Below are positions 10,922-17,631 of a stretch of DNA of 64,000 nucleotides, piece by piece. Each line of letters starts with the position of its first letter. Position 1 is the first letter of the stretch. A model generated the notes under the pieces. The model did not search any database, was not told the DNA's origin, and was given only the letters and a program-made list of their open reading frames with translations. Source of the stretch: an uncultured Pseudomonadales bacterium (GTDB lineage Bacteria > Patescibacteriota > Microgenomatia > UBA1400 > UBA12028); NCBI GenBank assembly GCA_964509365.1, contig CAZDWN010000002.1, positions 167,671 through 231,670 on the forward strand, in the 5' to 3' direction. The position numbers and the translations under genes are program-made.

Positions 10922-12088
10922 ATGAAATATATCGATCGTAGACCACAACTTGCTTCCGACCTATTGGTACAGGTTTCTCCAAATCTGCTCACCACGAAGG
11001 CACAAGTATCAAATAGTGCATTCGAAGCAGTTGAAGAGTATTACGCCCCAACTCAAAATCCGAAACAAACACTCACGGAGGCGGGCTTAAAAGCAAGTTA
11101 TTTTGGATCACAAGCACATCAATTGATGATGTTCTATTTTCTCTTGCAAGAAAAAAATGACTATCCTCATGAGAATGCCAAAGAAGTGAATGATTATCGA
11201 AGCACATATATCGCTGAACCTAACTTTACAGTTCTTCGGGATATTCTCGATTGCTTACATCCACTTTCTTCACATTTAAGCGTCAGAGAGCAAACAGTTC
11301 TTGCAATGAAATGTTGGTTGACAATGCAGGACTTCTCAACAAAAAAAGTTGACCTCCACTTACTTGCAGAAGATGAAAGAGCTCTTCTTCCCGAAGAGAA
11401 GAGAGTTGCACTTTGGATAGATGCTGGAAATCGTTCGAAGCTAACTTCAATTTTGGACACCATAGACGACTTAGCTAAAAATGCTCCAAAGCGTCTGCCG
11501 CGAACCGTACTGTTGGAAAGTCCACACATTGTTTCGTACCTAGACGGTGAATCGGGCATACAGTCGTGGATTCAGCCTGATCGCCTCCAATGGGCCAAAG
11601 ATAAAATGGTTGTCTTCGATTATAAATTCTCACAAAATTCCCTTCTCGAAAATGATTGGACAATTGCGGATTGGATTCAGATTGCATCTTTAGCAATTGT
11701 AGGAAGATTGCGCTCATCTGTGCTTTCGAGGCAAGAATATAGTAGCGTTCTCTCAAAGCCCGGTATGTACACTTTACCCATAGAAAATCTTCCGGAATTT
11801 ATTTGTGATGTCACCGTAGTATATGAGAATCCGCTTCGACGAGACAAAAATGGCATCGAACAAGTAGATGTTACTCTTTCGGAAGAGAAGACTGTTGCAG
11901 TGGTTGAATCACTGAAAAAAATTGCTTCAGATTTTAGACATCCCGACATGCGAAATGGATTTCGGGCATTTTTAAAACAAAGAACGTATGCTTCAAAATT
12001 GTTATCTCCCACTCCTATCCGTGGAAATTTGGAAGACAATGTTCAAGAGATCGCCCAATTAAATCTCTTGTATCAAGCGTATCGATGA
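10922..12088 (+). CDS. Hypothetical protein (388 aa, no recognizable domain)
   Basis: Long clean ORF; no motif I can identify. Confidence 0.4.
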   Translation: MKYIDRRPQLASDLLVQVSPNLLTTKAQVSNSAFEAVEEYYAPTQNPKQTLTEAGLKASYFGSQAHQLMMFYFLLQEKNDYPHENAKEVNDYRSTYIAEPNFTVLRDILDCLHPLSSHLSVREQTVLAMKCWLTMQDFSTKKVDLHLLAEDERALLPEEKRVALWIDAGNRSKLTSILDTIDDLAKNAPKRLPRTVLLESPHIVSYLDGESGIQSWIQPDRLQWAKDKMVVFDYKFSQNSLLENDWTIADWIQIASLAIVGRLRSSVLSRQEYSSVLSKPGMYTLPIENLPEFICDVTVVYENPLRRDKNGIEQVDVTLSEEKTVAVVESLKKIASDFRHPDMRNGFRAFLKQRTYASKLLSPTPIRGNLEDNVQEIAQLNLLYQAYR

Positions 12089-13338
12089 ATGATTCCCACT
12101 CTCATGTATTTTTGTAACACTTCTGGGACTCGAATACTTCCATCCTCATTTTGATAATTCTCAATGATTGCAGCCAAGAGTCGCGGCGTCGCGGCTACCG
12201 TATTATTGAGAGTGTAGACATACTTTGTCGTCCCATCACTCGCTCGGTAGCGCATATTCAGTCGTCTTGCCTGAAAATCATTAAAATATGAGGCAGAGTG
12301 CGTCTCACGAAATGCGTTTTGTCCGGGAAACCACGTCTCGATATCATATTTTTTTCGTTGTCCTGCACCCATATCTCCAGTGCACATAGCCAGTACTTGG
12401 TAGTGAAGTCCGAGTTTTGTCAGCAACTCTTCAGAATATCCCACCATTTTTTCATGCCACTCGCGTGTGACTGTTTCATCTGCCACCGTCAGCACGACTT
12501 GCTCGACTTTGGTAAATTGATGGACACGGAAAAATCCCTTGGTATCTTTGCCGTAACTTCCGACTTCACGTCGATAGCACGGCGAGATGCCCACCATTCT
12601 GACTGGCAAATCCTTTTCATTCATCGTTTCATTTTGGTGATACGCAGTGAGACTGACTTCAGCTGTGCCGATCAGTGCTTGACCGTCTTGAGTGGTGTAG
12701 TGGTCTTCTTGTCCCCATGGAAAATAGCCAGTTCCCCACATCGCTTCCTTATTGACCATCCAAGGCACACTCATCGCTTCAAATCCTTTTTCGATCATGA
12801 GGTTTAATGCAAACTGATGGACTGCCATTTCAAGCATCATCAAGTCTCCTTTGAGGATATACGAGCGACGTCCACCGATAGCGACCGCTTTTTCACTGTC
12901 ATACATACCCAATTCTTCTGCGAGTTCAAAATGCTGTTTTGGAGCAAATGAAAACGATGGTTTTTCGCCGACCGTGCGGACGACGACATTGCCACTCTCG
13001 TCTTTTCCGATCGGAGTATCATCGGAAGCTGGATTTGGAAGTTGATAGAGGAGATTTTGAAAAGCCTCTTCTGCTGTCTTGAGATCTGGTTCGACCGATG
13101 CCAATTGGTTCTTGAACGCTTTTCCTTTCAAGATTTCTTCTTCAGTTGGTTTACGACCCTTGATCGTGCTTGTGTGCTCATTTGCATTTTTTCTAATTTC
13201 TTCAACTGTCGCGATGAGTGATCGACGTTGTTCATCGACGGTCAGCAGTTTGTCTACCAGCGACACATCCATTTGCTTGTCTGCGACTGCCTTCCTATAT
13301 GCTTCTGTATGTTGTTGTATATATTTGATGTCGATCAT
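12073..13338 (-). CDS. serS: Seryl-tRNA synthetase
   Basis: N-terminal coiled-coil arm followed by a class II core (motifs 2 and 3: FRREVGSYGKDTKGFFRVHQFTKVE ... GAGQRKKYDIETWFPGQ). Confidence 0.9.
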   Translation of the reverse strand: MIDIKYIQQHTEAYRKAVADKQMDVSLVDKLLTVDEQRRSLIATVEEIRKNANEHTSTIKGRKPTEEEILKGKAFKNQLASVEPDLKTAEEAFQNLLYQLPNPASDDTPIGKDESGNVVVRTVGEKPSFSFAPKQHFELAEELGMYDSEKAVAIGGRRSYILKGDLMMLEMAVHQFALNLMIEKGFEAMSVPWMVNKEAMWGTGYFPWGQEDHYTTQDGQALIGTAEVSLTAYHQNETMNEKDLPVRMVGISPCYRREVGSYGKDTKGFFRVHQFTKVEQVVLTVADETVTREWHEKMVGYSEELLTKLGLHYQVLAMCTGDMGAGQRKKYDIETWFPGQNAFRETHSASYFNDFQARRLNMRYRASDGTTKYVYTLNNTVAATPRLLAAIIENYQNEDGSIRVPEVLQKYMRVGIIHRYA

Positions 13339-13344
13339 AGATTG

Positions 13345-13584
13345 TTAGAGCTTCTGAAATGCTATGGCACGAATTATTGTTGGGGAGAGTTCGTCCATGG
13401 ATGACGGCATCTCAATTTTCTGAGCATGAGCATAGTCGGCGAGTAAGTCCATCGCGAATGGAATTATAGATTTCTCGTCAAAGAAGGTATGTGGCTTCTC
13501 TGCTCGGACCACTTCCAAGATTGCAGCGCTAAACGCTGAAACAAATTTGAATCTCTCCTGACTGATTACTGGGATTTCTGTCAT
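13345..13584 (-). CDS. Small hypothetical protein (79 aa) between the T-box leader and serS
   Basis: ATG at 13582-13584 is preceded by GGAGGAAG. It is the C-terminal in-frame part of the 145-aa track ORF. Confidence 0.4.
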   Translation of the reverse strand: MTEIPVISQERFKFVSAFSAAILEVVRAEKPHTFFDEKSIIPFAMDLLADYAHAQKIEMPSSMDELSPTIIRAIAFQKL

Positions 13585-13599
13585 AACTTCCTCCTTTTG

Positions 13600-13805
13600 G
13601 TATAAAAAAACCACGACTAAAACATCCTGTAAGGACGCTTCCGCGTGGTGCCACCTTATTTTACCGTGTATCGAAACGAAGTTTCTGGTACTGCGGTCTT
13701 CATGCCAGCTATCTCGGGCTTGCCCGTCCCGTATTGATTGGGGATGCTTGAGATGGATGCTACTCCCTCTCATCGCGTTCAAAATTACTTTTATTGTATC
13801 ACTTT
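13600..13805 (-). promoter_or_regulatory. Putative T-box riboswitch leader (tRNA-sensing antiterminator) upstream of the small ORF and serS
   Basis: On the minus strand, GCGATGAGAGGGAGTAGCA closely resembles the B. subtilis glyQS stem I base (GCGAUGAGAAGAAGAGUA, GA/K-turn plus AG box). A short hairpin GAAACTTCGTTTC follows, then AATAAGGTGGCACCACGCGG matching the T-box consensus AANNAGGGUGGNACCGCGG. A terminator hairpin ACCACG...CGTGGT plus TTTTTTT sits right before the RBS. The UGGC bulge would pair with a G73 discriminator, as in tRNA-Ser. Confidence 0.5.
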
Positions 13806-13822: not shown

Positions 13823-14149
13823 TCAGAGTATAAAATCCTTATCTACTCTAACATCGATGCCAGTTTTATACAGTATTGCGAGCCGAATATAATATTCCTT
13901 TTCTTCCTCCTTTAGCATTTCCCAGGTTCGCTTTATCGCCAGATTTTTCATATCTTGCCCATGAAGGGCCACGGCCTCGTAATAAAAGGAAAAATACTGT
14001 CCGGTCGAAAAGTGAGAAAAGATTTCAGTAGCAATCAATCGCAGCTCTAGCATTTCAAGACCGTAGGAGTTTTGTTGAGCTGATTCAAGCTGCATGTTGA
14101 GTATTAGAGTCCGATTATTTTTGCATCCTTTTGCATAGCTTCCAGACAC
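13823..14149 (-). CDS. Hypothetical protein
   Basis: 108-aa ORF. Confidence 0.3.
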   Translation of the reverse strand: MSGSYAKGCKNNRTLILNMQLESAQQNSYGLEMLELRLIATEIFSHFSTGQYFSFYYEAVALHGQDMKNLAIKRTWEMLKEEEKEYYIRLAILYKTGIDVRVDKDFIL

Positions 14150-16269
14150 ACTCTGGCCAGAGTCTCGAGATCGATATTGAGATGCTCGATGCCTTCCAGG
14201 ATCTCATCGCGAGTAGCTCCTTTTGCGAATCCTTTCTCTTTGAACTTACGCAAAACTCGTTCGAGCGTCACATCGGCAAGCTTTTTACTCGGCATGACGA
14301 GCGCGCAGGCGACTATAATACCGGTCATATGATCACATGCATACAGTGACCATTCCATGAGGGTCGATGGCAACCGTTGATTTGCGACGCGTGAGTAGTT
14401 ATGAGTGCGGACACTATCTCCCCACATGTCGTCTACTCCAAGTCTTTCCAATGCCTCACTCAGCACGACTGTATGTTGGTCAAATGCTGACTCTGTCTTC
14501 TCCCAGTCCGCATCATGGATGAGTCCAATGATCTTCCAACTTTCTTTCGATTCGTTGACTTCATTTGGTCGTTCGTTCGAAAAATAGTCCCACAAGCCGC
14601 CCATCGCCGATTCAACTGCTTTCATGTGCCCTCGCAAGCCGTTATTCTGTACCAATGATTCCAGCAAGGTCATCGCTTGGTCGCGAGAAAGACTTATTTG
14701 TTTCTTGTCATCCTGGCTTGTCCAGGATCTTTTTGGCCCGGATTCCGGACGCACTTCGTTTGCCGGAATGACGAGTTTTACATTTTTTCCCATGAGCATC
14801 TCAGTCATGCGAACTTGGTCAGCTGTCGGTCGCAAGGTCGGGAATGCGATCACTTCTTTGATCGACCATGTGTTGGTCAAGAACATCACCAGTCGATCAA
14901 TGCCCATACCGATCCCACCGAGCGGTGGCATACCATATTCCATGGCTTCGACGAAATCTTCATCGAGCGGCTGCGCTTCGTCATCTCCCTCTCGCATGTT
15001 TTTCTGTTCGTTCTCAAAACGAGCGCGCTGATCGAGACTGTCGGTGATCTCACTCCAGCCATCGGCCATTTCTTTCGTCCCGACATACAGTTCAAATCGT
15101 TCGACGAAGCCATCCGCATTGCGGTGTGCTTTTGCCAGTGGACTGACTTCTTTCGGGTAATCGATGATCCACGTCGGATTTAAGAGATTCGGCGTCACTA
15201 ACTTGTCAAATATCGCAAAGATCGCCTTGCCTCGCGAAAAAGAGCCTGTCGTCTCGAGTCTATGAGCTTTTAGTTTCTCTTGTATCTCATCATCTGATAC
15301 ATGATCCATGTTCCATGATAAATACTTCTCTATTGCATCCACCATTCGAAGCCGTGGCCAATTGCCTTCCAAACTGATCGTCGTCTCGCCTACTGAAAGT
15401 TCGAGACTCCCATTCACTTTTTCCGCGAGATGCTTGATCAGTCCCTCAGCTGTATCCATCATCGTCTGGTAGTCAGCGTAGGCGTGATACCACTCGATCA
15501 TCGTAAACTCAGGTTGGTGAGTTTGATCGATGCCCTCGTTGCGGAAGTTTCTGGCGATCTCAAACAATCGTTCATACCCACCGACGATCAATCGCTTCAA
15601 ATACAGCTCTGGAGCGATGCGCAGGTAAAAATTACTATCAAGTGCATTCATGTGGGTGGTAAATGGCTTCGCATTCGTCCCACCATACAGTGGTTGTAAG
15701 ACCGGTGTCTCTACTTCGACGAAATTATGGATATCTTGCAGGTACCTGCGCAGTTCCTTTTCGATCAAGAATCGGTCATCAAGCACTTTTTTGACCTTTG
15801 GGTCGATGAGCATGTCGAGGTATCGCTTGCGAAAACGAATTTCTTTGTCGTCTATACCTTGGAAGGTAGCTGGGACAGCCCGAAGCGCTTTGGAGAGCAC
15901 TTGATAGGAATCTGCTTCAATGGTGATCTCTCCTGTTTTTGACTCAATCACTTTACCCGAGACTCCCACGAAATCTGAGGCATCGATCAAGTTCACAAGG
16001 GTCTTGTAGTGATCTTCCCCGACATTCTCTTCCTTCACCATGACTTGGATGCTGCCACTATGGTCGGTCAGAGTTAAGAAAGTGACTTTGCCGTGCTCTC
16101 GCTTACTCATGATCCGGCCAGCAGTTTGCACGTCGCTCCCGAGCGATTCACGGCATGACTGAAGCGTAAAGGTTTTCGCGAATGAGTAGGGATGCACATT
16201 GATCCCAAGTGCTTCCAGTTGTTCTCTCTTTTGCTTCTTTGCTTGGATGGTTTCTTCGAGTCTAGACAT
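14104..16269 (-). CDS. lysS: Lysyl-tRNA synthetase (class II) fused in-frame to a C-terminal HD-domain phosphohydrolase
   Basis: Residues 1 to about 497 are a canonical LysRS (OB anticodon-binding domain, FRNEGIDQTHQPEFTMIEWY, GGIGMGIDRLVMFL, ending ...IAFPTLRP). About 45 residues of linker follow, then an HD domain (RGHMKAV ... IGLIHDADW ... CDHM). One continuous 721-aa ORF. Confidence 0.8.
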   Translation of the reverse strand: MSRLEETIQAKKQKREQLEALGINVHPYSFAKTFTLQSCRESLGSDVQTAGRIMSKREHGKVTFLTLTDHSGSIQVMVKEENVGEDHYKTLVNLIDASDFVGVSGKVIESKTGEITIEADSYQVLSKALRAVPATFQGIDDKEIRFRKRYLDMLIDPKVKKVLDDRFLIEKELRRYLQDIHNFVEVETPVLQPLYGGTNAKPFTTHMNALDSNFYLRIAPELYLKRLIVGGYERLFEIARNFRNEGIDQTHQPEFTMIEWYHAYADYQTMMDTAEGLIKHLAEKVNGSLELSVGETTISLEGNWPRLRMVDAIEKYLSWNMDHVSDDEIQEKLKAHRLETTGSFSRGKAIFAIFDKLVTPNLLNPTWIIDYPKEVSPLAKAHRNADGFVERFELYVGTKEMADGWSEITDSLDQRARFENEQKNMREGDDEAQPLDEDFVEAMEYGMPPLGGIGMGIDRLVMFLTNTWSIKEVIAFPTLRPTADQVRMTEMLMGKNVKLVIPANEVRPESGPKRSWTSQDDKKQISLSRDQAMTLLESLVQNNGLRGHMKAVESAMGGLWDYFSNERPNEVNESKESWKIIGLIHDADWEKTESAFDQHTVVLSEALERLGVDDMWGDSVRTHNYSRVANQRLPSTLMEWSLYACDHMTGIIVACALVMPSKKLADVTLERVLRKFKEKGFAKGATRDEILEGIEHLNIDLETLARVCLEAMQKDAKIIGL
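14706..14772. repeat. Copy A of a ~60-70 nt double-hairpin repeat (TGTCATCCTGGCTTGTCCAGGATCTTT...GATTCCGG...CCGGAATGAC), lying in-frame in the lysS-HD linker
   Basis: Its 28-nt core is identical to 24214-24241. It carries two internal inverted repeats (ATCCTGG/CCAGGAT and ATTCCGG/CCGGAAT) flanked by GTCAT/ATGAC. Confidence 0.7.
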
Positions 16270-17160: not shown

Positions 17161-17631
17161 CTACTCTATTTCAGCGATTTTGTATTTGACCTTGCCAGCG
17201 GGCGCTTCGACTTCGATCTCTTCGCCGACCTTTTTGCCGACCAATGCGGTACCAAGCGGAGAACTTTCAGAAATTTTCTTTTCGGCCGGATTTGCTTCCC
17301 ACTCACCGACGATCTTGTAGGTGTGCTTGGATTTACCGATGTGGACAGTGACAGTCGATCCAATTGCGACAGTGGTGCGACCTTTTTTGGTCTTTACCAC
17401 TTTCGCTTTGTTGACGAGGACTTCAAGCTCAGAGATTCGGCCCTCCATAAATGCCAAGTCTTCTCTGGCTGCGTGATATTCGCTGTTTTCGGAAAGATCG
17501 CCAAAAGATCGGGCGGTCGCCACGCGCTCGATAGCCACTGGAAGTTTCACATCCTTGAGCTCGGTGAGCTCTGTGACTATTTCGTCGTATCCTTCTTGTG
17601 TGAGCACCACATCATCGGTGATGGTGTTCAT
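17161..17631 (-). CDS. greA: Transcription elongation factor GreA
   Basis: N-terminal coiled coil LTQEGYDEIVTELTELK...SFGDLSENSEYHAAREDLAFMEGRISELE and a C-terminal FKBP-like domain. Confidence 0.85.
   Translation of the reverse strand: MNTITDDVVLTQEGYDEIVTELTELKDVKLPVAIERVATARSFGDLSENSEYHAAREDLAFMEGRISELEVLVNKAKVVKTKKGRTTVAIGSTVTVHIGKSKHTYKIVGEWEANPAEKKISESSPLGTALVGKKVGEEIEVEAPAGKVKYKIAEIE

Follow-up and report, generated by a model that had tools for sequence, protein, structure and literature searches.

The window analysed here is a stretch of 64,000 nucleotides from contig CAZDWN010000002.1, and it carries on its minus strand a gene for seryl-tRNA synthetase (serS), preceded by a small open reading frame (ORF) that we call ORF79. 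The spacer between ORF79 and a 90-aa ORF further upstream (13801-13604, minus strand) holds the subject of this report, a leader with the elements of a T-box riboswitch in a very compact form. Proteins related to this SerRS at 55-87% identity all belong to metagenome-assembled genomes (MAGs) of the Patescibacteria/Candidate Phyla Radiation (CPR), labelled Woesebacteria, Pacebacteria, Paceibacterota or Microgenomates group, and by these relatives the host is a Patescibacterium (Woesebacteria/Pacebacteria/Microgenomates-like). A preliminary description of the sequence had proposed a T-box leader specific for tRNA-Ser through a UGGC bulge and a G73 discriminator base, with a terminator, controlling the small ORF and serS. 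This core reading is supported. The same description had taken the rarity of T-boxes outside Firmicutes, Actinobacteria and Chloroflexi as taxonomically informative, an inference that misleads, as the genome lies outside the phyla usually cited for T-boxes. In the direction of transcription, the features of the locus are as follows.

13793-13801, minus strand: TGaTACAAT, a putative extended -10 promoter read from the sequence, 16 nt upstream of Stem I

13746-13776, minus strand: ultrashort Stem I of 31 nt, with a 2-bp base (GC/GC), an internal loop, the helix GAG-GGA/UCC-(AU)-CUC and a 6-nt terminal loop

13758-13763, minus strand: specifier loop GUAGCA, with the serine codon AGC (13761-13759) followed by the stacking purine A (13758)

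13727-13744, minus strand: Stem II, a plain 4-bp hairpin (UCCC/GGGA) with a 10-nt A-rich loop, CAAUCAAUAC

13708-13726, minus strand: Stem IIA hairpin and F-box-like segment, CGGGCAAGCCCG (CGGG-CAAG-CCCG), then AG-AUAGC

13698-13700, minus strand: RAG purines AAG, 5' of Stem III

13663-13697, minus strand: Stem III, ACCG...CGGU enclosing a GAAAC-UUC-GUUUC hairpin, found in the minimum free energy and centroid folds

13631-13657, minus strand: antiterminator, with helix A1 (AAGG/CCUU), the bulge UGGCACC (13653-13647) and helix A2 (ACGC-GGAA-GCGU), -6.2 kcal/mol alone

13604-13648, minus strand: intrinsic terminator, a hairpin (13648-13611) of -19 to -21 kcal/mol, then U7 (13610-13604)

13345-13584, minus strand: ORF79, 79 aa, with the Shine-Dalgarno sequence (SD) AAAGGAGG at 13597-13590, and supported by codon usage and one homologue

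12073-13338, minus strand: serS, seryl-tRNA synthetase, 421 aa, with Pfam domains Seryl_tRNA_N and tRNA-synt_2b (class II core)

The 3' half of the leader can adopt two folds. The terminator draws on nucleotides of the antiterminator (some of the bulge, A2 with both its strands, and A1 on its 3' side), and its formation therefore excludes the antiterminator; according to the folding model the default state is OFF, as in classical T-boxes. Within the 7-nt bulge, UGGC is complementary to the tRNA 3' end G73-C-C-A, and the whole of UGGCACC is invariant in eight aligned leaders. Bacterial tRNA-Ser carries G73 as a rule, so that the bulge, the codon presented by Stem I and the gene downstream agree with one another. 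In both folds the SD of ORF79 stays single-stranded, outside the terminator, and the predicted output is therefore transcriptional. Neither fold of the leader sequesters this SD: the hairpin and its U7 tract end 9 nt before GGAGG (13594-13590), a spacing that had previously been given as 15 nt. The ATG of serS follows at 13338, 6 nt past the ORF79 stop codon, and no obvious SD is seen for serS itself. Equivalent terminators with U-runs are present in nearly all homologous leaders, as is a TGnTAnAnT element 14-20 nt upstream of Stem I, at which transcription would start.

The 5' half carries the codon. Three strings had been singled out in the preliminary description, and each occurs once, on the minus strand and where it had been placed: GCGATGAGAGGGAGTAGCA at 13776-13758, GAAACTTCGTTTC at 13685-13673 and AATAAGGTGGCACCACGCGG at 13660-13641. 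The first had been called a stem I base nearly identical to that of glyQS, with a long Stem I and an internal specifier loop expected above it. The string itself is there, but it is the whole 5' half of an ultrashort Stem I plus the specifier loop, and the codon sits in the terminal loop. A serine codon with a purine behind it had also been anticipated, and this is what the loop presents, as AGC and A13758. The internal loop of Stem I is K-turn-like, with GAUGA opposite AA: after a 3-nt bulge (GAU), GA provides one G-A and one A-A pair. Canonical GA/GA pairs are found at this place in L048 and L009, and the K-turn is absent in L001. A serine codon (AGC or UCC) plus a purine occupies the 3' end of the Stem I terminal loop in 12 out of 12 Ser-type leaders. 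AGC-A is presented by the loops GUAGCA (window, L001 and L201-L204), UUAGCA (L006) and CUAGCAC (L003); UCC-G is presented by AAGUUUCCG (L009), and UCC-A by CUUUCCA (L048) and CAUCCAA (L169). The bulge is UGGC in all these leaders except L203, where it is CGGC. This arrangement of two nucleotides, codon and purine is the same as in the actinobacterial-type matches L092 and L140.

Between these two halves stand the elements that T-boxes have in common. The Stem IIA/F-box block is generic: about 70 T-boxes, of every architecture, came up when a metagenome was scanned for it. The RAG purines, which have a role in the discriminator domain (PMC11297988), are AAG or GAG in all eight aligned leaders. 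The window and L003 have a Stem III; most relatives are without one. The Stem II loops of the Ser-type leaders share an A-rich motif (..NNAAAU..), which could supply the minor-groove contacts, or the latching of the codon-anticodon helix, of the S-turn that these leaders lack.

Homologous serS leaders were found in reference MAGs (L001, L003, L006, L009 and L048), in a metagenome (L169, with the same leader-ORF-serS-secA synteny as the window) and through protein look-ups (L201-L204). Many other CPR serS loci have no leader, and the distribution is patchy. Across leader-bearing loci the SerRS identities run from 41% to 85%. Eight leaders (7 Ser and 1 Trp) were parsed by hand into a structural alignment, N-padded and each checked against its sequence; it replaced MAFFT alignments in which the Stem I registers were off by one. 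Standard pairs fill 99.0% of its 208 cells against 69.1 +/- 2.4% in shuffles (0/500 reach the observed value), a percentage inflated by the fitting of the alignment to the structure by hand. Sliding the partners by one column drops the pairing to 44-49%. Changes on both sides occur at 27 of the 35 pairs, and the covariation score is 0.553, compared with 0.142 in shuffles, none of which (0/500) reaches it. The Stem I pairs are all kept with double changes in the eight leaders; Stem II (helix 3) has them at 5/6 pairs, and Stem IIA covaries at 2/4 pairs. From one leader to another, no sequence is shared in the upper helix of Stem I, in Stem II or in A2, which covaries completely, and the first pair of A1 occurs as A-U, G-C, C-G and U-A, all four Watson-Crick forms. 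In the leaders L201-L204 the bulge is 8 nt long (A-UGGCACC) and AUAGC is replaced by ACAGC. A covariance model built from the N-padded alignment is weak, splitting the window's own leader at Stem III (24.5 + 23.4 bits). The only further match of this model in the window, at 17341-17470 (10.7 bits), falls within the coding sequence of a GreA-like protein and is due to chance; a match to GGTGGCACC in L022 was likewise rejected, being in a coding region.

An Rfam scan of the window at gathering thresholds gives zero matches. With permissive filters, the T-box model RF00230 aligns over its whole length (1-219) with 13782-13628 on the minus strand, with a score of 30.4 bits where the threshold is 93 (E = 3.9e-5 when the spacer is scanned by itself and 0.0063 for the whole window), and this is the only credible Rfam match in the 64 kb. 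The low score comes from Stem I, where the cmscan alignment has 5 nt in place of about 71 model positions. When the other loci serve as controls, long-Stem-I leaders reach 95-135 bits and compact leaders all lie at 25-67 bits or are unlisted; actinobacterial-type ileS leaders and some canonical serS leaders also stay below 93 bits. The threshold is not a fair test for compact leaders. The preliminary description had counted an Infernal score below threshold against a T-box. The score does formally fall below, and the argument is invalid, as compact leaders and some canonical serS T-boxes fail in the same way. A generic promoter and terminator scan listed neither element: the promoter has no -35, and the terminator was missed owing to its bulges and the 20-pair limit. 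The window has one copy of the composite pattern GCCCNNNATAGC...AGGTGGNACC, 100 shuffles have none, and the leader folds more stably than shuffles (z = -2.4). That the T-box is real, and more than chance, is confirmed.

Compact leaders are also found in front of genes for other aminoacyl-tRNA synthetases. They come from the metagenome scan, whose pattern joined the generic IIA/F-box block to the T-box core and of whose rows about 40% were chance matches; most real matches are canonical T-boxes, and the compact ones were picked by eye, non-exhaustively. With the genes behind the leaders assigned by NCBIfam, the codon in the loop and the base in the bulge suit the synthetase for six amino acids (Ile, Val, Pro, Asp, Trp and Ser): AUC-A with UGGU before IleRS (L083 and L116, with several others recognised by N-terminal sequence only), GUC-A with UGGU before ValRS (L159), CCC-G with UGGU before ProRS (L104), GAC-A with UGGC before AspRS (L181 and L152), UGG-G with UGGC before TrpRS (L086) and UCC-A with UGGC before SerRS (L169). 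The third codon position is C wherever a codon can end in C, which fits the published "C rule" for the specifier (PMC7583486). The S-turn halves GAAGAAA/AGUAGAA are still present in the Ile- and Val-type compact leaders.

Several observations concern individual leaders of other loci. The Ile-type compact leader of L198 (780-960, loop UCAUCA) is followed by a 144-aa ORF and then IleRS; its IIA block and terminator are almost identical to those of the window, and its bulge is UGGA, not the UGGU expected for tRNA-Ile A73. In L104 (minus strand) and L113, Pro-associated T-boxes precede a small ORF upstream of ProRS that resembles, by eye, a tRNA-binding domain, with the N-terminus MATYD.F..LDIRVG.I...DFPEARKP.YKLTIDFG. 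In Firmicutes, the classical T-box of Gemella serS (L030 and other Gemella loci, about 2917) reads GGUGGAACC, with a UGGA bulge despite the G73 expected of tRNA-Ser. L030 also has a glycine riboswitch on the opposite strand (2416-2514).

Taken together, we read the leader as a Ser-specific T-box riboswitch of compact architecture that controls the ORF79-serS operon by transcription attenuation, and we put the probability of this reading at about 0.87. Transcription would start at the extended -10 promoter, and the nascent leader would fold into the ultrashort Stem I, the plain Stem II, Stem IIA with its F-box, and the RAG purines with Stem III. An uncharged tRNA-Ser with the anticodon GCU would then bind the loop codon AGC of Stem I, beneath which A13758 would stack. 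The free end of the tRNA, G73-C-C-A, would pair with UGGC in the bulge, and the weak antiterminator (-6 kcal/mol) would be stabilised, allowing RNA polymerase to read into ORF79 and serS. A charged tRNA-Ser could not make this second contact; the terminator (about -20 kcal/mol plus U7) would form, and transcription would stop.

Several points weigh against this reading. The window has no long Stem I with an AG bulge and a distal elbow-stacking loop, and the Stem II S-turn halves GAAGAAA/AGUAGAA are absent in all Ser-type leaders. The elbow-binding distal Stem I has been described as essential for transcriptional T-boxes (PMC7583486). The Stem II S-turn has been described as essential when Stem I is truncated, its string of five purines latching the codon-anticodon helix and offsetting the missing elbow contact. 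With both missing, the leader would have to reach sufficient affinity for tRNA within the time window of transcription by some other means. The leader does not reach the RF00230 gathering threshold, and the alignment behind the pairing percentage was fitted by hand. No tRNA genes lie in the window, and across 46 loci there are only unrelated Gln and Met ones, so that the G73 of this tRNA-Ser is presumed from the bacterial rule. Lastly, in the close relatives L202 (about 1290-1480) and L203 (about 790-980), a terminator AGCACUC...GAGUGCU with U7 stands just 3' of the antiterminator and does not overlap it, and the bulge of L203 is ACGGCACC, that is, CGGC instead of UGGC. In this part of the clade the switch may be decaying, or may follow a different switching logic. 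The two missing elements, these two loci and the many CPR serS genes without any leader would all suit a decaying or relic T-box, whose tRNA response was lost along with the distal Stem I and the S-turn and whose hairpin and U7 now act as a constitutive partial terminator or attenuator. We consider this unlikely: the window has an intact bulge and two folds that strictly exclude each other, the helices have been kept by compensatory changes across SerRS identities of 41%-85%, and the loop codon has switched between AGC and UCC yet stayed serine. The same compact design also correctly tracks other amino acids, which would be unexpected without selection for tRNA recognition.

A translational or dual-mode switch like the actinobacterial ileS class, acting on ribosome access to ORF79 or serS instead of on termination, appears less probable again. 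It would fit with the ultrashort-Stem-I T-boxes described so far, which are all translational (PMC7583486, PMC11297988), and the small distance between the ORF79 stop codon and a serS without an obvious SD makes coupling possible. However, the alternative hairpin is directly followed by U7 and ends 9 nt before an SD, AAAGGAGG, that is unpaired in both folds; nearly all homologous leaders end in a hairpin and U-run, and U-runs are missing from the high-GC actinobacterial-type matches of the metagenome scan. A different specifier or tRNA can be read in two places, as GUA-G (Val) within GUAGCA, which fits the rule of a codon plus a purine, or as UCA-A (Ser) in the Stem II loops of the window, L001 and L003. 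Both readings are very improbable. The discriminator of tRNA-Val is A73 and would need UGGU where the bulge has UGGC; the shifted triplet becomes UUA or CUA (Leu) in L006 and L003, and UCC alone is available in the loops of L009, L048 and L169. Nor do the Stem II loops of L006, L009, L048 and L169 contain a serine codon, and no triplet but the one directly before the last purine of the Stem I loop is serine in every leader. The leader could, finally, be coding sequence. A mechanical ORF list contains a 145-aa ORF that starts at a TTG at 13782, crosses the leader and shares the frame of ORF79; in a public database, a protein of 142 aa (P0001) is 100% identical over the ORF79 part and must extend upstream through the riboswitch, terminator and SD. 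This is almost certainly not so: the upstream part is an RNA structure with covariation, a terminator with U7 and then a strong SD and ATG precede the 79-aa form, and the homologue on L201 is called as 79 aa. P0001 and the 145-aa ORF are thus probably a mis-annotation of the leader as coding sequence.

On the attenuation reading, the first regulated gene is ORF79. Its codon-usage score is positive in its own frame only, where it reaches the 6th percentile of real genes and exceeds all off-frame windows. The preliminary description had called it uncharacterized, and it has no Pfam match. A first homologue search gave no other relative, and an exhaustive search of 1.8 billion representative proteins gave exactly one, P0002, of 79 aa and 53% identical, which stands in the same leader-ORF-serS arrangement on L201 with a ratio of nonsynonymous to synonymous substitution rates (dN/dS) of about 0.2. 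Judging by these sequence data, ORF79 is a real, lineage-restricted gene. The slot between a compact leader and its synthetase gene varies in content: it is empty in L006, L009, L202 and L204, holds unrelated small ORFs in L001, L003, L104, L171, L198 and L203, a NUDIX-like gene in L169 and a PspA-like histidine phosphatase in L048. The last of these follows a Ser-type compact leader (2221-2988, loop CUUUCCA) and precedes serS; it encodes 207 aa of the histidine-phosphatase family and resembles the phosphoserine phosphatase PspA, below the model cut-off. Should it act as such a phosphatase, serine synthesis and the charging of tRNA with serine would be coupled through the T-box.

Comparing the window with L201 shows that divergence is uneven along the locus. 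In serS (dS 0.37, about 94% amino acid identity) and in the 5' half of the leader, with Stem I, Stem II and IIA, the two loci hardly differ. The A2 helix, terminator and ORF79 (window 13345-13660, L201 830-1268) are far more diverged, with a dS of about 2 and 53% amino acid identity for ORF79, and L201 has no Stem III. The expression platform and ORF79 may thus have been replaced or recombined, giving the locus a mosaic history.

The closest known relatives in architecture are the actinobacterial ileS T-boxes (Mycobacterium smegmatis, M. tuberculosis and Nocardia farcinica; "class II" of the T-box database TBDB). Like the window leader, they have an ultrashort Stem I made of a K-turn region (only K-turn-like in the window) and a short helix, a terminal loop with two nucleotides, codon and purine, and no distal platform to bind the tRNA elbow; both also have Stem IIA/F-box, RAG and the T-box bulge. 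Stem I of the actinobacterial-type matches is CCGG-CUAUCA-CCGG, compared with GGA-GUAGCA-UCC in the window. The actinobacterial leaders respond to Ile through an SD sequestrator without a U-run and depend on a Stem II S-turn, whereas the window leader belongs to a Patescibacterium, carries a serine codon and has an intrinsic terminator and a plain Stem II hairpin. Differing in output, amino acid, host and Stem II, it falls outside actinobacterial class II. With the canonical class I (the Bacillus subtilis tyrS type, RF00230; for serS, for example, Gemella L030, L112 and L136), it shares the T-box sequence, the 7-nt UGGN bulge, the antiterminator/terminator competition with its U-run, Stem IIA/F-box, Stem III, a codon matching the synthetase and the C rule. 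The canonical Stem I, however, is about 85-100 nt long, with an internal specifier loop and an AG bulge and distal loop on the tRNA elbow, and the canonical Stem II has an S-turn; in the window the specifier is in the terminal loop and the S-turn is missing. The classical "minimal" T-box, that of glyQS (Bacillus, Geobacillus and Oceanobacillus), resembles the window in its reduced tRNA contacts and transcriptional output. It keeps the long Stem I and drops Stem II and IIA/B; the window does the opposite, keeping a Stem II hairpin and a putative IIA/B.

Within reviews and TBDB, the compact architecture has so far been described only for translational actinobacterial ileS leaders, and an earlier primary description is possible. 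TBDB labels a truncated Stem I as "class II, translational", with a model searched in Actinobacteria only (PMC7778990). A full-text literature search found no T-boxes in Patescibacteria/CPR, Saccharibacteria or Parcubacteria. We propose tentatively, at somewhat less than an even chance, that the window leader may be a member of an undescribed class of miniature transcriptional T-boxes, which would combine an ultrashort Stem I, a terminal-loop specifier and an intrinsic terminator, would serve at least Ser, Ile, Val, Pro, Asp and Trp, and is met here in Patescibacteria MAGs and unclassified metagenomic contigs, its Ser subgroup having an A-rich hairpin loop in place of the S-turn and most members no Stem III.

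The surroundings of the operon offer some further observations. Upstream, lysS encodes a LysRS of 721 aa (14104-16269, minus strand) whose C-terminal 222 aa (14104-14772) have no Pfam match. This extension carries, by eye, an LHDxDWE-like motif, and a free-standing ORF homologous to it (27-40% identity) lies immediately before serS, or before the T-box, in L004, L005, L006, L008, L010, L011 and L169, with two tandem copies in L048; the LysRS-fused form is found in the window, L001, L002, L201, L203 and L204. Between lysS and the leader lies the 90-aa ORF (13823-14095, minus strand), without a Pfam match and with a low but positive codon-usage score. It resembles by eye the ORF at the same position upstream of serS in L002, where the T-box is absent, and a hairpin (CUGAGU...ACUCAG) without a U-run spans its stop codon. 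On the other side, a 388-aa ORF (10922-12088, plus strand) without a Pfam match lies between serS and secA, convergent with serS, and is kept in position and sequence in L007 (60%), L203 (30%), and L204 and L001 (about 22%).

If the proposed class is real, its members would be the smallest natural T-boxes, with Stem I through antiterminator taking up about 110-125 nt. Their co-transcriptional recognition of tRNA without an elbow platform or an S-turn would be a new solution to tRNA capture. Leaders in which an ultrashort Stem I goes with a terminator, conserved, covarying and with the right codon, and in the Ser group also without an S-turn, are a natural counter-example to the view given in reviews that transcriptional T-boxes need a long Stem I for rapid tRNA capture and that a truncated Stem I occurs only in translational actinobacterial ileS leaders. 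Such a very small tRNA-sensing module would also be of interest for engineering. Standard annotation misses these leaders, as their Rfam scores lie below threshold, and one public database entry (P0001) annotates the leader as part of a protein. For the CPR, with their reduced genomes, the finding would mean control of aminoacyl-tRNA synthetases by riboswitches that sense tRNA.

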